Part shown: positions 30,767 through 50,028 of the stretch, piece by piece
Numbering within the stretch: the first letter of the stretch is position 1
How the letters are laid out: each line of letters opens with the position of its first letter
From: a candidate division WOR-3 bacterium
GTDB taxonomy: Bacteria > Hydrothermota > Hydrothermia > UBA1063 > CAJXJZ01
Assembly (NCBI GenBank): GCA_027038175.1
Contig: JALVYB010000051.1
Coordinates: 28,021 to 92,020, forward strand
Length of the DNA: 64,000 nucleotides
Reading direction: 5' to 3'
Position numbers and translations under genes: made by a program
Notes under the pieces: model-generated
Told to the model about the DNA's origin: nothing
What the model saw: only the letters and a program-made list of their open reading frames with translations
Databases searched by the model: none

Positions 30767-31502
30767 AAACTATACCTCTATTGCACCATACTATGACATG
30801 CTCATGCGTAGAGTAAGATACAGGGATTGGATGAGATACATAGAAAGTATTATTGAGATGCATGCGCCTTATGCTAAAAACATACTTGATGTTGCCTGTG
30901 GAACAGGTAATGGTCTTTTAAACCTGAGAAAAAAATACAAATTGTATGTGGCGTTTGATAGGTCACTTGATATGCTAAGGGTCTTTAAGTCTAAATTAAA
31001 GTTTTATGAAATAGAACCGTTAATCTTTGTGGCTGATGTAAGAAAAATACCAATAAAAAGCCAGAGTATTGATGCAGCATTCTCAATCTTCGATAGTTTA
31101 AACAACCTACTCTCTCCAAAAGACCTGAAAAAAGCATTTGGTGAAGTCTTCCGCATTTTGAAAGATGGAGGTGTATTTATATTCGACATGAATACAACTT
31201 ATGTACTGAGGGAACACTGGGGAACCAAAACCCGTATAGAAGAGGATGAGGATTTGATTTCAATCTGGAGAACCCGGTACAAAAACAGGATATCCGAACT
31301 TCATATAACACTATTTGTAAAAGGTTCAGATGGGAAATACGTAAGAGTCGATGAGCTACACATGGAAAGGGGATATGATATCGATGAAGTTCTTGCTCTA
31401 TTAAAAGAGACCGGTTTTTCTAATGCATACGCCTACGACCACATGACATTCACTCCACCAAAAGAGGATTCTCTTAGAGTAAACTACGTGGCGGTGAAAT
31501 AA
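30738..31502 (+). CDS. class I SAM-dependent methyltransferase
   Basis: 254 aa. Motif I is ILDVACGTGNGLL. Acidic motif II and FIFDMN motif. Confidence 0.7.
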   Translation: MKRRMKKISKNYTSIAPYYDMLMRRVRYRDWMRYIESIIEMHAPYAKNILDVACGTGNGLLNLRKKYKLYVAFDRSLDMLRVFKSKLKFYEIEPLIFVADVRKIPIKSQSIDAAFSIFDSLNNLLSPKDLKKAFGEVFRILKDGGVFIFDMNTTYVLREHWGTKTRIEEDEDLISIWRTRYKNRISELHITLFVKGSDGKYVRVDELHMERGYDIDEVLALLKETGFSNAYAYDHMTFTPPKEDSLRVNYVAVK

Positions 31503-32725
31503 TGTACATAGCAGACCTTCATATACATTCGAGGTTCTCGCGTGCAACGTCGAATAAGATAAATCTGGATACCCTATCTTACTGGGCAAAAATAAAGGGG
31601 ATACACTTACTTGCCACAGGTGATGCTTTACACCCTGTATGGCTTTCAGAACTCAAAGAGAAATTAAGGGAAAAAGACGAAGGCATTTATGAATATAATG
31701 GTGTAGACTTTGTTCTTGAAACCGAGATTTCCACAATATACAAGGATAGAGGTAAGATACGAAAGATACATATTGTATTTCTGTTCCCAGACTTTAAAGC
31801 AGTGGACGAGTATGCGAAATTCCTGTCAAAAAAATGGAACCTGGCGGCAGATGGAAGGCCCATAGTGGGTTTGCATGCAAGAGAACTCATCAAAAGAGCA
31901 GTGGATATAGACGAGAGGACTATAGTAATACCGGCTCATATATGGACTCCATGGTTCTCTCTATTTGGCTCAAACTCTGGATACGATTCCATCGAGGAAT
32001 GTTGTGGAGAGGATAAATATCTCATAGATGCTCTTGAGACTGGATTATCATCGGATCCACCTATGAACTGGATGGTCTCTGAACTTGATGAATTTGCACT
32101 TGTTTCAAATTCAGACGCACACTCTCTTGAAAACCTTGGGAGAGAAGTAAACGTTTTCTCAAAACCCCTAAACCTTGTAGAACTTAAAAGCATTCTTAAG
32201 AAAAAGGACTCAGAAAGATTCCTGTTTACAGTAGAATTCTTTCCTGAAGAAGGTAAATATCATTTTGATGGACACAGGCTATGCAAAGTTTCCATGTCAC
32301 CAGAGGAGAGCCTGCGTAACAAAAATATATGCCCTGTATGCGGAAGGCCCCTGACTCTTGGTGTACTTCATAGAGTTTATGCACTTGCAGACAGACAATA
32401 TGGGGAAAAACCAAAAAAATACATACCTTATAAAAGACTTATCCCGCTAAAAGAGATAATTGCCGATGTGCTCCAAAAAGGCAAGAATACCAAGAAGGTT
32501 AACACAATTTATGAAAACCTGATAAAAACGCTGGGAAACGAGTTCACGATTTTGCTCTCCTCTGATAAGGAAGATATCGGCAAAATTGCAGGGGAAGAAA
32601 TTGCAATTGCTATTGAGAACGTCCGGCAAGAAAGTGTAGAAATAGAGCCAGGATATGACGGAGTTTATGGAAAAATAAGCGTAAAAAAAGAACAGAGAAA
32701 ATACGAAAATGGTCTTCTCTTTTGA
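31502..32725 (+). CDS. endonuclease Q-like protein (PHP-domain N-terminus + C-terminal zinc finger)
   Basis: 407 aa. DLHIHSRFSRATS is the PHP-type metal site as in archaeal/Bacillus EndoQ. C-terminal CKVS...CPVCGRPLTLGVLHR zinc finger. Size matches EndoQ (~400-420 aa). Confidence 0.65.
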   Translation: MYIADLHIHSRFSRATSNKINLDTLSYWAKIKGIHLLATGDALHPVWLSELKEKLREKDEGIYEYNGVDFVLETEISTIYKDRGKIRKIHIVFLFPDFKAVDEYAKFLSKKWNLAADGRPIVGLHARELIKRAVDIDERTIVIPAHIWTPWFSLFGSNSGYDSIEECCGEDKYLIDALETGLSSDPPMNWMVSELDEFALVSNSDAHSLENLGREVNVFSKPLNLVELKSILKKKDSERFLFTVEFFPEEGKYHFDGHRLCKVSMSPEESLRNKNICPVCGRPLTLGVLHRVYALADRQYGEKPKKYIPYKRLIPLKEIIADVLQKGKNTKKVNTIYENLIKTLGNEFTILLSSDKEDIGKIAGEEIAIAIENVRQESVEIEPGYDGVYGKISVKKEQRKYENGLLF

Positions 32726-32754
32726 GGTTGTAGAACTTAGTTTATAATTTAGCA

Positions 32755-32949
32755 ATGAAAAGTGAATACCTTAACTTACTTATATGCCCCGAATGTGGGG
32801 GCATGCTGGCGGAGGAAGGTAAAAACAAACTGGTATGTGAGGAATGCGGCAGAAAATACCCTGTAATTGATGGTTTACCTGTTCTTCTTGAAGAAAAGGA
32901 GGCTATAAATGTATTTTATTCTTCTTTTGATAATAAGCAGTCTGATTAA
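32755..32949 (+). CDS. Trm112/YcaR-like (UPF0434) zinc-ribbon protein
   Basis: 64 aa. LICPECGGML...LVCEECGRKYPVIDGLPVLLEE is the family signature. Confidence 0.65.
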   Translation: MKSEYLNLLICPECGGMLAEEGKNKLVCEECGRKYPVIDGLPVLLEEKEAINVFYSSFDNKQSD

Positions 32950-48370: not shown

Positions 48371-48391
48371 ATATTCCGTGCTGTGAGTGAT

Positions 48392-49282
48392 CTATGTTAA
48401 AATCCCCTTCCTTATTCCATACTTTTCACATAATTTTGTCGTCTTTTCTTCAAGTTTTTTCCTGTATTCTTTTGAAGGCTGAGGGAAAATCCTGTATAGT
48501 TTCTTATATTTCGGTACAAGGTTGGGATAATGCTTTTTAAGAAATCTGTAATAAAGGGTTTTGCAGTCTGATAGTCTGTTGCCGAATAAAGTTAGAGACC
48601 CAATGAAAACAAAATCTGCTCCATACTGCCTCGCAGTTTTTACCATATTATCCAGTTCATTATCCAAATCAGAGATATAAGGCAATACAGGAATGTACGA
48701 AACACCAGTTAAAAAACCTGCACTTTTGCATTTTTGCATTGTCTTCAACCGCTCATATGGAGCAGGAGCCCCTGGTTCAAGAATTTTAGCCATTTTGTCA
48801 TCTAATGTAGAAATAGAAAAATTGATAATTACGCCTCTCTCCAACTTATCTTTTAGGTCATCCGGAATAATACCTTTTTCGTCAATTTCTTTTAATATAT
48901 CCAGGTCTCTCAATACCAAAGTAGATTTGGTCAAAATATGAACAGGAAAACGATACTTTAAAATTATTTCAAGCAACTTCCTTGTTAACTTCAATTTTTT
49001 CTCGATACTCTGATAGGGTTCAGTTGAAGTCGCTAAAGCAATGAAACCGTATTCTCCCTTATTTCTCCTTATCTTAAGTTGTTTATCAAGCACTTCTTCG
49101 GCATTAATTTTAACAGACAGTACATTTCCCATATTTTCTCCATACTTACTCCCTCTTGTATAACAGTAAATACAATTAAATGAGCACCCCGAATAAGGAT
49201 TAATAGAGTAATCATCGAGAAACCAGTTATCTCTCTTCTTATGCTTATTCAGGACTGATTTCACCATAATTTCTTTTATCAT
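48392..49282 (-). CDS. radical SAM protein, SplB/'DNA repair photolyase'-like (COG1533)
   Basis: 296 aa. CSFNCIYCY is the CxxxCxxC cluster motif. It is the only Cys triad in the protein. Confidence 0.7.
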   Translation of the reverse strand: MIKEIMVKSVLNKHKKRDNWFLDDYSINPYSGCSFNCIYCYTRGSKYGENMGNVLSVKINAEEVLDKQLKIRRNKGEYGFIALATSTEPYQSIEKKLKLTRKLLEIILKYRFPVHILTKSTLVLRDLDILKEIDEKGIIPDDLKDKLERGVIINFSISTLDDKMAKILEPGAPAPYERLKTMQKCKSAGFLTGVSYIPVLPYISDLDNELDNMVKTARQYGADFVFIGSLTLFGNRLSDCKTLYYRFLKKHYPNLVPKYKKLYRIFPQPSKEYRKKLEEKTTKLCEKYGIRKGILT

Positions 49283-49284
49283 TT

Positions 49285-50028
49285 TCAGGAACTTATTAAA
49301 GTTTTCAATTCTTCCTGCTCTTTTTCACTTAATTTCTTCATACCATTTTTCACTATCCATCTTGTATGTTTATCCTTCACTTTTGCCCACTTTTTCAGAA
49401 ATTCAAAAACAGCCCTGTTATCCTTCTTGCTTATTTCCCTCAAGGCCCAGCCTATAGCCTTTTTAACATCTTCATCCTGTTCTCCCATAACCTTGCTCAA
49501 AAATCCAAGGCATATCTTAGAGTCTGTTTCTTTTGCTCTAATATAGGGTGGAATCGTAGCAACCGCGAGCCTTCTAATCCATTTGTTCTCCGATTTAACC
49601 CATTTATCCATTAGAGAGAATATTTCCTGTTGATTTTGAACTGCAAGATTCACAATAACTTTTAAAGCCAGCTGGTCACAGATTTCCCAGTTTGAAATGT
49701 CATCAAGCACATTAATAACAAACTCTTTTACACCTCTGTAATCCTTTTTAAACATTACTCCGAGTGCACTAATTACAATTAATCTCTCATCTCTTTTACC
49801 TTCCCTCCATAATTCCATTAACCTGTTATACTTCCAGTTATCCTTTGCCAACAACTTTCCGAGCTCCTTGCCGATAGAATTTAAGAGAGGTGTTTTCGTA
49901 AATTTGAGTTTACCTGTTTTTTCTTTTGCAAGTTCCTCCGATATTACATTTATGGTTAACCCAATACTACCCTTTTTCAGTTCTTCGTAAATTAATTTCG
50001 CTATATCTTTTTTATCTTTCATCACCAT
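49285..50028 (-). CDS. DNA alkylation repair protein (AlkD/AlkC-like HEAT-repeat glycosylase family)
   Basis: 247 aa all-helical. …SNWEICDQLALK…, …WIRRLAVATIPPYI… pattern of the DNA_alkylation family. Confidence 0.65.
   Translation of the reverse strand: MVMKDKKDIAKLIYEELKKGSIGLTINVISEELAKEKTGKLKFTKTPLLNSIGKELGKLLAKDNWKYNRLMELWREGKRDERLIVISALGVMFKKDYRGVKEFVINVLDDISNWEICDQLALKVIVNLAVQNQQEIFSLMDKWVKSENKWIRRLAVATIPPYIRAKETDSKICLGFLSKVMGEQDEDVKKAIGWALREISKKDNRAVFEFLKKWAKVKDKHTRWIVKNGMKKLSEKEQEELKTLISS

Follow-up and report, generated by a model that had tools for sequence, protein, structure and literature searches.

A conserved two-gene cassette of an AlkD-like protein and a SplB-like radical-SAM enzyme near the reverse gyrase gene of a candidate division WOR-3 bacterium

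SplB-like radical S-adenosylmethionine (SAM) enzymes are encoded in predicted operons together with a family-4 uracil-DNA glycosylase (UDG) and a DUF4130 protein, or together with ImuB-C (Aravind, Anand and Iyer 2013, PMC3765255). Two families of such enzymes have been connected with the SOS response: the gene for Rv2578c of Mycobacterium tuberculosis has a LexA chromatin immunoprecipitation peak and shows RecA-dependent induction (PMC3381160), and PA0069 is an SOS gene of Pseudomonas aeruginosa (bioRxiv 10.1101/2022.03.14.484287). Proteins of COG1533 also host inteins, like replication and repair proteins (PMC4760082). Here we describe two adjacent genes, one for an AlkD-like protein and the other for a COG1533 radical-SAM enzyme, in a 64,000-nt stretch of DNA (the window) from a candidate division WOR-3 bacterium (GenBank assembly GCA_027038175.1, contig JALVYB010000051.1, positions 28,021–92,020). 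To our knowledge, SplB-like proteins outside the true spore photoproduct lyases (SPLs) have no assigned substrate. The adjacency is a conserved mobile two-gene cassette and the one real functional linkage of a region that the preliminary description of this DNA had taken for a DNA-repair-rich neighbourhood around the gene for reverse gyrase (rgy).

The AlkD-like gene (49285–50028, minus strand) is the first and the radical-SAM gene (48392–49282, minus strand) the second gene of the cassette, the two lying on the same strand, 2 nt apart. A metagenome search seeded with the single AlkD-like protein gave no match; when metagenome contigs were searched with an alignment of AlkD-like homologues, 80 loci were kept, in which the AlkD-like protein is 35–74% identical to that of the window. 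A radical-SAM homologue, 48–86% identical to the protein of the window, was present in 60 of the 80 loci and in 27 of the 32 with flanks of 1.2 kb or more on either side. The genes of the pair mostly adjoin each other and are co-directional, their order being inverted in one clade, and loci whose AlkD-like protein is closer to that of the window also tend to have the closer radical-SAM enzyme (r = 0.89 for the two identities, n = 27). Clustering of the open reading frames (ORFs) of the loci revealed flanks that are otherwise unconserved and, in eight loci, a gene inserted between the pair. This gene codes for an O6-alkylguanine-DNA alkyltransferase (MGMT/Ogt; PF01035 at 58.5 bits, PCHR motif). 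Named homologues at 60–70% identity come from Thermoplasmata, Heimdallarchaeaceae, a Yellowstone archaeon, Patescibacteria and Deltaproteobacteria. In the metagenome of a relative that is syntenic with the window (see below), copies of the cassette reside on other contigs without further window genes. No close relatives of the cassette proteins were found in IMG/VR, and only distant ones (<37% identity) in PLSDB.

A few related metagenomes account for many of the 80 loci, which may be close relatives of one another, as might be expected if the adjacency were inherited gene order without functional meaning. That explanation is, however, difficult to reconcile with a pair that stays adjoining down to 44% identity for the AlkD-like protein and 48% for the radical-SAM enzyme, nor does it suit the inversion in one clade, the insertion of a repair gene in another, the unrelated flanks or the occurrence of named hosts in both domains of life. 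We therefore give it next to no credence.

The AlkD-like protein, which consists of HEAT-like repeats, matches PF08713 with 117.8 bits (gathering score 21) and the AlkD structures with E = 1e-8. Its residues W114, D118 and W194 align with the catalytic W109, D113 and W187 of AlkD, the roles of which have been described (Trp109, Asp113 and Trp187; PMC8626424), and are invariant in 39 sequences. Both the family match and the intact triad bear out the earlier recognition of a HEAT-repeat protein resembling alkylpurine glycosylases at this position. The subfamily is small, comprising 169 proteins at E≤1e-5, and comes from thermophile-rich samples. At one locus (L087, 644–1828) a protein of the AlkD-like family additionally contains a DUF3795 domain rich in Cys, as a fusion.

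The radical-SAM enzyme carries the CxxxCxxC motif (C33/C37/C40). It scores below the cut-offs of the models for Rv2578c (182 versus 430), PA0069 (163 versus 360) and SPL (TIGR04070, 22.6 versus 400), and judging from its sequence it is a member of a subfamily that is separate from, but homologous to, the Rv2578c and PA0069 families. At E≤1e-30 this subfamily comprises 266 clusters, out of 6894 at E≤0.001, and only four full-length clusters are identical at ~50% or more. Sequence and profile searches of the PDB with the radical-SAM protein returned no SPL, the only matches being chance ones to repeat proteins. A structural model was obtained with AlphaFold2 from 65 family members (pLDDT 96.2, pTM 0.93), while the single-sequence model (pLDDT 37.7) was unusable. 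When the former model was compared with the PDB using Foldseek, ranks 1–6 were all occupied by SPL (E 9e-11 to 1e-9, TM 0.61–0.67), with nearly full-length coverage and well ahead of other radical-SAM enzymes, the next-best matches having E ~1e-7. The previous designation 'SplB-family' is thus appropriate for the fold and at the level of COG1533 but does not extend to membership of the SPL family proper. One family member (P0382, 44% identical) has a C-terminal HHH_8 domain, similar to the 8-kDa domain of Pol X. The SPL-like fold, this fusion, the SOS-regulated relatives and the inteins together suggest that the enzyme probably acts on DNA. Since the hosts show no sign of spore formation, the spore photoproduct is an unlikely substrate.

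From the gene identities, the catalytic residues, the fold and the linkage observed here, we infer substrates and a division of labour as follows. The AlkD-like protein would scan duplex DNA without base flipping and excise cationic or bulky N3- or N7-alkylpurines, as AlkD does, and the resulting apurinic/apyrimidinic (AP) sites would be cut by endonuclease IV (Nfo) or endonuclease Q (EndoQ), whose genes are at other places of the genome. With a 5'-deoxyadenosyl radical, its radical-SAM partner would undo another class of lesion from the same spectrum of damage and would need no oxygen for this; an alkyl or methylene-bridged adduct beyond the reach of the glycosylase is a candidate. Oxygen-independent repair of this kind would suit anaerobic thermophiles, which are unable to use AlkB-type dioxygenases. 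An alkylation theme of the cassette is indicated by the insertion of MGMT together with the invariance of the AlkD triad. We propose such a role in alkylation or crosslink repair tentatively, giving it a chance somewhat below even. More speculative still, and in our view doubtful, is the broader interpretation that the AlkD-like protein and the SPL-fold radical-SAM enzyme, occasionally with MGMT, make up an undescribed mobile, oxygen-independent repair system of thermophilic bacteria and archaea based on direct reversal of a non-UV lesion. No paper on the pairing of AlkD-type and radical-SAM proteins was found in the literature. If true, the system would be an anaerobic counterpart of AlkB-type oxidative dealkylation and would provide the first functional handle on the SOS-regulated SplB-like family of Rv2578c and PA0069. 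SplB-like proteins occur widely, with SOS-induced examples in M. tuberculosis and P. aeruginosa, and the tight tie of one subfamily to an alkylpurine glycosylase with an intact triad, and sometimes to MGMT, points to alkylation or crosslink damage. The cassette also supplies small thermostable proteins for direct assay.

Several points weigh against our interpretation of the cassette and its surroundings. Five of the 32 well-flanked AlkD-like loci have no radical-SAM gene. No fourth conserved cysteine, comparable to C140, the H-atom donor of Geobacillus thermodenitrificans SPL, was present in alignments of 21 or 65 sequences, and the chemistry of the radical-SAM enzyme may therefore differ from that of SPL. 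The hosts, from both domains, appear mostly thermophilic, the median predicted growth optimum of the cassette loci being 73 °C (n = 28). This estimate, from the fraction of the amino acids I, V, Y, W, R, E and L (IVYWREL), is noisy, since only some kilobases are available at each locus, and hot springs and vents may be over-represented in the metagenome collection. Transcription units in the window were deduced from gene spacing alone. Finally, the surroundings of the cassette also fit anti-phage defence or DNA modification, in which case the radical-SAM enzyme would modify DNA or the glycosylase would attack modified phage DNA. In the window the cassette shares a variable low-GC segment with a gene pair containing an ATPase similar to AbiL and AriA, toxin-antitoxin genes (PIN, AbrB, DUF433) are found near other loci, and the distribution is patchy in both domains at 60–75% identity. 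For the combination of a SplB-like enzyme with UDG and DUF4130, modification of thymines has been proposed (PMC3765255). PADLOC, however, recognised neither cassette protein, matching only the neighbouring ATPase, and the loci do not share any neighbouring gene for a restriction-like effector or for specificity. Defence is also at odds with the MGMT genes in eight loci, with the SOS regulation of paralogous family members and with the invariant triad for alkylpurine excision, and we consider it unlikely.

Whether it serves repair or not, the cassette is located in DNA that differs from the rest of the window. The four genes between rgy (43297–46776, minus strand) and a tRNA-Asn(GTT) gene identified with ARAGORN (50136–50211, minus strand) have the lowest GC content of the window (z = −2.1, −1.2, −2.1 and −1.55). 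An AAA_15/AAA_21 ATPase of the AbiL/AriA/HEC-01 type (46799–47884, plus strand; Pfam and PADLOC), which resembles defence proteins and matches AbiLi, AriA and HEC-01A of PADLOC at ~1e-16, is encoded by a gene (GC z = −2.1) that is absent beside rgy in a relative. It starts 22 nt from the start codon of rgy and is directly followed by an ORF of 161 aa (47885–48370, plus strand) with no match in Pfam, NCBIfam or PADLOC; the latter ORF was also considered as a NUDIX hydrolase and rejected for want of a NUDIX match. By their sequences the ATPase and the 161-aa ORF look like a defence-type two-gene module. This variable, lower-GC segment of 3.4 kb, extending from rgy to tRNA-Asn, would then hold two small mobile modules, the ATPase pair and the AlkD-like/radical-SAM cassette.

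Upstream of the cassette, 107 nt free of terminator-like sites separate the AlkD-like gene from the tRNA-Asn gene. A sigma-70-like site upstream of the tRNA gene (TTGACC-17-TATAAT, 50254–50226) is the best in the region, matching at 11 of 12 positions, in a scan that overall yielded no excess of promoter-like (50 versus 52) or terminator-like (14 versus 14.6) sites over shuffled sequence. Transcription from the tRNA-Asn promoter may continue into the cassette. A classical tRNA-integrated island was considered for the segment and rejected: no second copy of the tRNA-Asn 3' end was found in the window, and neither convincing flanking (att-like) repeats nor an integrase was found at the segment. 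There is a perfect inverted repeat of 13 nt, AAAATGATAAAAG / CTTTTATCATTTT, with one arm in the spacer between rgy and the ATPase gene (46780–46792) and the other at the junction of the AlkD-like and radical-SAM genes (49273–49285), which is probably due to chance in AT-rich DNA.

In the preliminary description, the stretch from 31502 to 50028 was viewed as a coherent toolkit against heat damage (deamination, depurination and alkylation), co-located around rgy, which would imply selection for co-regulation or co-transfer. The genes named in it are real, including rgy, EndoQ, TatD, the radical-SAM and AlkD-like genes and a fragment of Nfo, except that the NUDIX gene (11474–11971, minus strand) is situated 20 kb upstream of that range. 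It encodes a generic NUDIX hydrolase (PF00293, 68 bits) with a Nudix box, far below the cut-offs of the MutT models, ~20 kb from EndoQ and adjoining the gene for ornithine carbamoyltransferase. Nfo (63470–64000, minus strand; PF01261, 109 bits; TIGR00587, 148 versus 129.65) is represented by its C-terminal 176 aa, cut by the end of the window, and is not linked to the region. TatD, a metal-dependent nuclease of the TatD/YchF family (37072–37833, plus strand), is confirmed (PF01026, 274 bits; TIGR00010, 279 bits versus a cut-off of 206).

A toolkit is made attractive by the five to seven genes of DNA metabolism that this thermophile has within 64 kb; in addition, vent Epsilonproteobacteria have both COG1533 and rgy in their genomes (table in PMC2628731), and the cassette is mostly found on thermophile-like contigs. 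However, 14 of the 19 ORFs between 31.5 and 50 kb are unrelated to repair (C25 peptidase, bactofilin, CN-hydrolase, NadE, PurH, TauE, TsaB, RimI, EamA, the ATPase and others), and the genes of the supposed toolkit are scattered among them on both strands. The window contains 55 ORFs (counted at ≥100 aa), with a GC content of ~39% and a coding density of 98%, and at such a density tight spacing carries no signal. About five of the 55 are clear DNA-metabolism genes; this was counted post hoc, without a formal test, and is close to the roughly three expected if DNA metabolism typically accounts for 5% of genes, a rough figure of our own. A neighbourhood rich in repair genes is thus not confirmed.

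The arrangement of the genes points in the same direction. A periplasmic binding protein (29984–30766) and a class I SAM-dependent methyltransferase (30738–31502; Methyltransf_25/11 domains, with UbiE/MenG-like NCBIfam matches that are sub-threshold only) precede EndoQ (31502–32725). Downstream are a C25 peptidase with a type IX secretion system (T9SS) tail (32909–36670), a bactofilin (36674–37075), TatD, a CN-hydrolase (37864–38697), NadE (38694–39542), PurH (39542–41074), a short TauE-like protein (41071–41433), TsaB (41430–42029), a RimI-type GNAT (41941–42447) and an EamA transporter (42449–43300), all encoded on the plus strand. The TatD gene overlaps the bactofilin gene by 4 nt and is part of a tight array with the NAD and purine genes. 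EndoQ, TatD and rgy, the last on the opposite strand, belong to different units, surrounded by genes for a peptidase, a bactofilin, NAD and purine metabolism and the modification of tRNA. Close WOR-3 relatives (L001, L002 and L004; EndoQ 74–81% identical) keep the gene order from ~21.4 kb towards rgy, with TatD in the same position in all three. In one of the relatives (rgy 53% and EndoQ 74% identical), the order is kept from genes for a tetratricopeptide repeat (TPR) protein, aconitase and isocitrate dehydrogenase through to EamA and rgy. Beyond rgy the same relative has genes for DUF1302, DUF1329, MMPL, TetR and rubrerythrin and lacks those for the ATPase, the radical-SAM enzyme and the AlkD-like protein. 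In a second relative (EndoQ 81% identical) the order is the same to the end of the compared stretch, inside EamA.

The neighbourhood of EndoQ was further examined by tblastn in 80 EndoQ-bearing species genomes of other lineages, covering ~1.1 Mb of flanks. Homologues of rgy, TatD, the AlkD-like protein or Nfo were found within 10 kb of EndoQ in none of the 80; what recurs beside EndoQ in these genomes is pyrimidine-biosynthesis genes or a methyltransferase gene. Since the linkage is lost outside close relatives, EndoQ, TatD and rgy are neighbours by inherited order in a compact genome and not by function. With synteny ending at rgy, no other members at any of the 80 EndoQ loci elsewhere, and relatives of EndoQ common in apparent mesophiles (see below), we judge a co-selected toolkit very unlikely. 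In our opinion, held with reasonable confidence, the stretch is not a repair island but a syntenic block followed by a variable segment, with the cassette as the only functional unit. The block, from ~21.4 to 46.8 kb, would be vertically inherited and tightly packed, with EndoQ, TatD and rgy as independent genes among housekeeping genes; rgy would be its last gene, with a different kind of DNA beyond it. TatD would act as a general 3'-5' nuclease, and EndoQ, with the beta clamp as its probable tether, would nick DNA 5' of deoxyuridine (dU), deoxyinosine (dI) and AP sites. The region is for the most part ordinary, consisting of known genes of a thermophile placed by inherited order.

Reverse gyrase (1159 aa) is present and intact, its frame being uninterrupted by frameshifts. 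The protein matches TIGR01054 with 1197 bits (cut-off 471.7) over model positions 1–1165 of 1172 and combines the Pfam domains zf_Rg, DEAD, Toprim and Topoisom_bac in one polypeptide. The motifs APTGVGKT (Walker A), FVDDVD and ITYHRTDS (catalytic Tyr) align with those of the Archaeoglobus fulgidus enzyme. By these features it would most likely introduce positive supercoils in an ATP-dependent manner and protect DNA at high temperature. It had been suggested that the phylogeny of rgy and the composition of the segment be examined for horizontal transfer from archaea. The enzyme scores about equally against the archaeal (A. fulgidus; 653 bits) and bacterial (Thermotoga maritima; 637 bits) structures, and no other gene of the syntenic block has diverged as far as rgy, which has 53% identity to its orthologue in the relative (L001, 10001–13513) compared to 56–94% for other block genes. 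Both facts might be read as signs of a recent horizontal transfer of rgy, or of the segment as a whole, from archaea. Yet the named proteins among its 120 best matches are all bacterial, the closest being those of Aquificota (47–50% identity, >1100 bits). In a neighbour-joining tree rgy of the window pairs with its syntenic orthologue, the pair being sister to Desulfurobacteriaceae and Hydrogenothermus. As the orthologue occupies the same locus, rgy already had this position in the ancestor that the two WOR-3 lineages share. Moreover, both rgy (z = +0.4) and EndoQ have a GC content typical of the window, as is the GC content of rgy at third codon positions. Recent archaeal transfer of rgy is therefore not indicated by these sequence comparisons and appears highly improbable, although rgy may have been transferred in the more distant past.

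The EndoQ-family protein, which consists of a PHP nuclease domain, a Zn-binding domain and a C-terminal helical domain, aligns over its full length (residues 4–399) with PfuEndoQ (5zb8, also 7k30) at E = 1.6e-61. All PHP metal ligands are in place: H7, H9, E75, H90, H146, D205 and H207 correspond to H8, H10, E76, H84, H139, D193 and H195 of PfuEndoQ, as listed in the structure paper (PMC5961232). Neither of the refuting observations named in the preliminary description, loss of these ligands or a frameshift in rgy, was thus encountered. Residues of the lesion pocket and wedge are likewise retained (T149, W151, E179, G181, L182 and N203 for T142, W144, E167, G169, L170 and N191), with the exception of L168, which is replaced by T. 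Conservation was evaluated in 121 bacterial sequences, namely the protein of the window and its 120 closest homologues (P0121–P0240). The ligands E, H90, H146, D and H207 are present in 121 of 121 and H7 and H9 in 120, the last sequence having a gap. The Zn finger (H258/C261/C277/C280) has His for the first Cys in all 121, and to judge from the sequence the His-Cys-Cys-Cys finger probably still binds Zn. The C-termini (32650–32725 in the window, and the equivalent part of homologues) end in LF in 113 of the 121 sequences, with QLGLF in 33, QMSLF in 13 and QLSLF in six; in the window the ending is NGLLF. An ending of the QLGLF type is the canonical bacterial beta-clamp-binding motif, and archaeal EndoQ has a PCNA-binding PIP box in this place. 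The clamp tether of EndoQ thus seems, from these motifs, to have been swapped between the domains.

Although the match to TIGR00375 is full-length, its score (228.9 bits) is below the cut-off of 326.6; the homologues carry PF27218 and are named 'endonuclease Q family protein' by NCBI. They number at least 8000 proteins at E≤1e-10 and are encoded by 562 or more species genomes of GTDB, many of which belong to candidate phyla from groundwater. Bacterial EndoQ is therefore common in candidate phyla, contrary to its earlier characterisation as rare and to the literature, which still speaks of a 'limited number' of bacterial homologues. Many of the lineages are apparently mesophilic, including groundwater Patescibacteria and Omnitrophota, and the median predicted optimum is 48 °C.

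Some neighbours of EndoQ deserve mention. The methyltransferase gene overlaps the start of EndoQ by 1 nt and is translationally coupled to it, and a homologue is directly upstream of EndoQ in 9 of the 80 loci, in WOR-3 and Cloacimonadota (L006, L009, L012, L014, L021, L026, L037 and L048 among them). The methyltransferase may be a functional partner of EndoQ. In Omnitrophota (L023, L034, L042, L054, L059, L071, L078, L081 and others) EndoQ is located inside a pyrimidine-biosynthesis array, with pyrR, pyrB and pyrC upstream and carA and carB downstream. It is curious to find a nuclease that cleaves at dU among genes of uracil metabolism, but the arrangement may reflect lineage synteny alone. 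A COG1533 radical-SAM homologue (36% identical) is encoded directly downstream of EndoQ in a single genome locus (L028, 2186–4219; Patescibacteria).

The IVYWREL fraction of the window proteome (55 ORFs) is 0.43–0.44, which translates into a predicted optimum of about 67–75 °C by the Zeldovich relation. Together with rgy, this composition supports a thermophilic host, in agreement with the previous view. Two secreted cysteine peptidases of >1250 aa, a C11/clostripain-like one (25444–29415, plus strand) and the C25/gingipain-like one mentioned above, bear T9SS sorting tails, consistent with a WOR-3 host of the FCB superphylum. The best named EndoQ locus, 81% identical, likewise points to the WOR-3 lineage. 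Two further proteins of ~1100 aa (1207–4443 and 16839–20138, both on the minus strand) combine a nucleotide cyclase domain (Guanylate_cyc or GGDEF) with an AAA_16 STAND ATPase and TPRs and are large signalling NTPases.

Compared with described systems, rgy resembles the reverse gyrases of A. fulgidus (1GKU) and T. maritima (4DDU) in its N-terminal Zn finger and its superfamily 2 helicase-like, Toprim and topoisomerase IA parts. It differs from known ones in being a fast-evolving WOR-3 copy, 47–50% identical to the nearest named proteins, and has nothing functionally unusual. The EndoQ-family protein has the three-domain layout, all PHP ligands and the lesion-pocket residues of PfuEndoQ (5ZB8, 7K30) and Bacillus pumilus EndoQ, and departs from the archaeal enzymes in the His ligand to Zn, the beta-clamp-type C-terminus and the sub-threshold score against TIGR00375. 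Of the cassette proteins, the AlkD-like one shares PF08713 and the Trp-Asp-Trp triad with Bacillus cereus AlkD, YtkR2 and AlkC. Its sequence similarity to AlkD is weak, it belongs to a distinct small subfamily and its gene is almost always beside a radical-SAM gene. The radical-SAM enzyme has the CxxxCxxC core of SPL (SplB, 4FHC), the nearest predicted fold; it is only 15–17% identical to SPL, below the family cut-off and devoid of the conserved fourth cysteine, and in the same manner it is homologous to Rv2578c and PA0069 yet below both cut-offs. As in the operons predicted previously (PMC3765255), the nearest published counterpart, a SplB-like radical-SAM enzyme is encoded beside a member of a DNA-glycosylase superfamily in contexts of damage response. 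Here, however, the partner is of the AlkD type instead of UDG, neither DUF4130 nor ImuB-C is present, MGMT is an occasional third component and the radical-SAM enzyme belongs to another subfamily. The cassette of the AlkD-like protein and the SPL-fold radical-SAM enzyme therefore extends this predicted type of system, in which a radical-SAM enzyme is combined with a DNA glycosylase, and the AlkD-type partner may be its new part.

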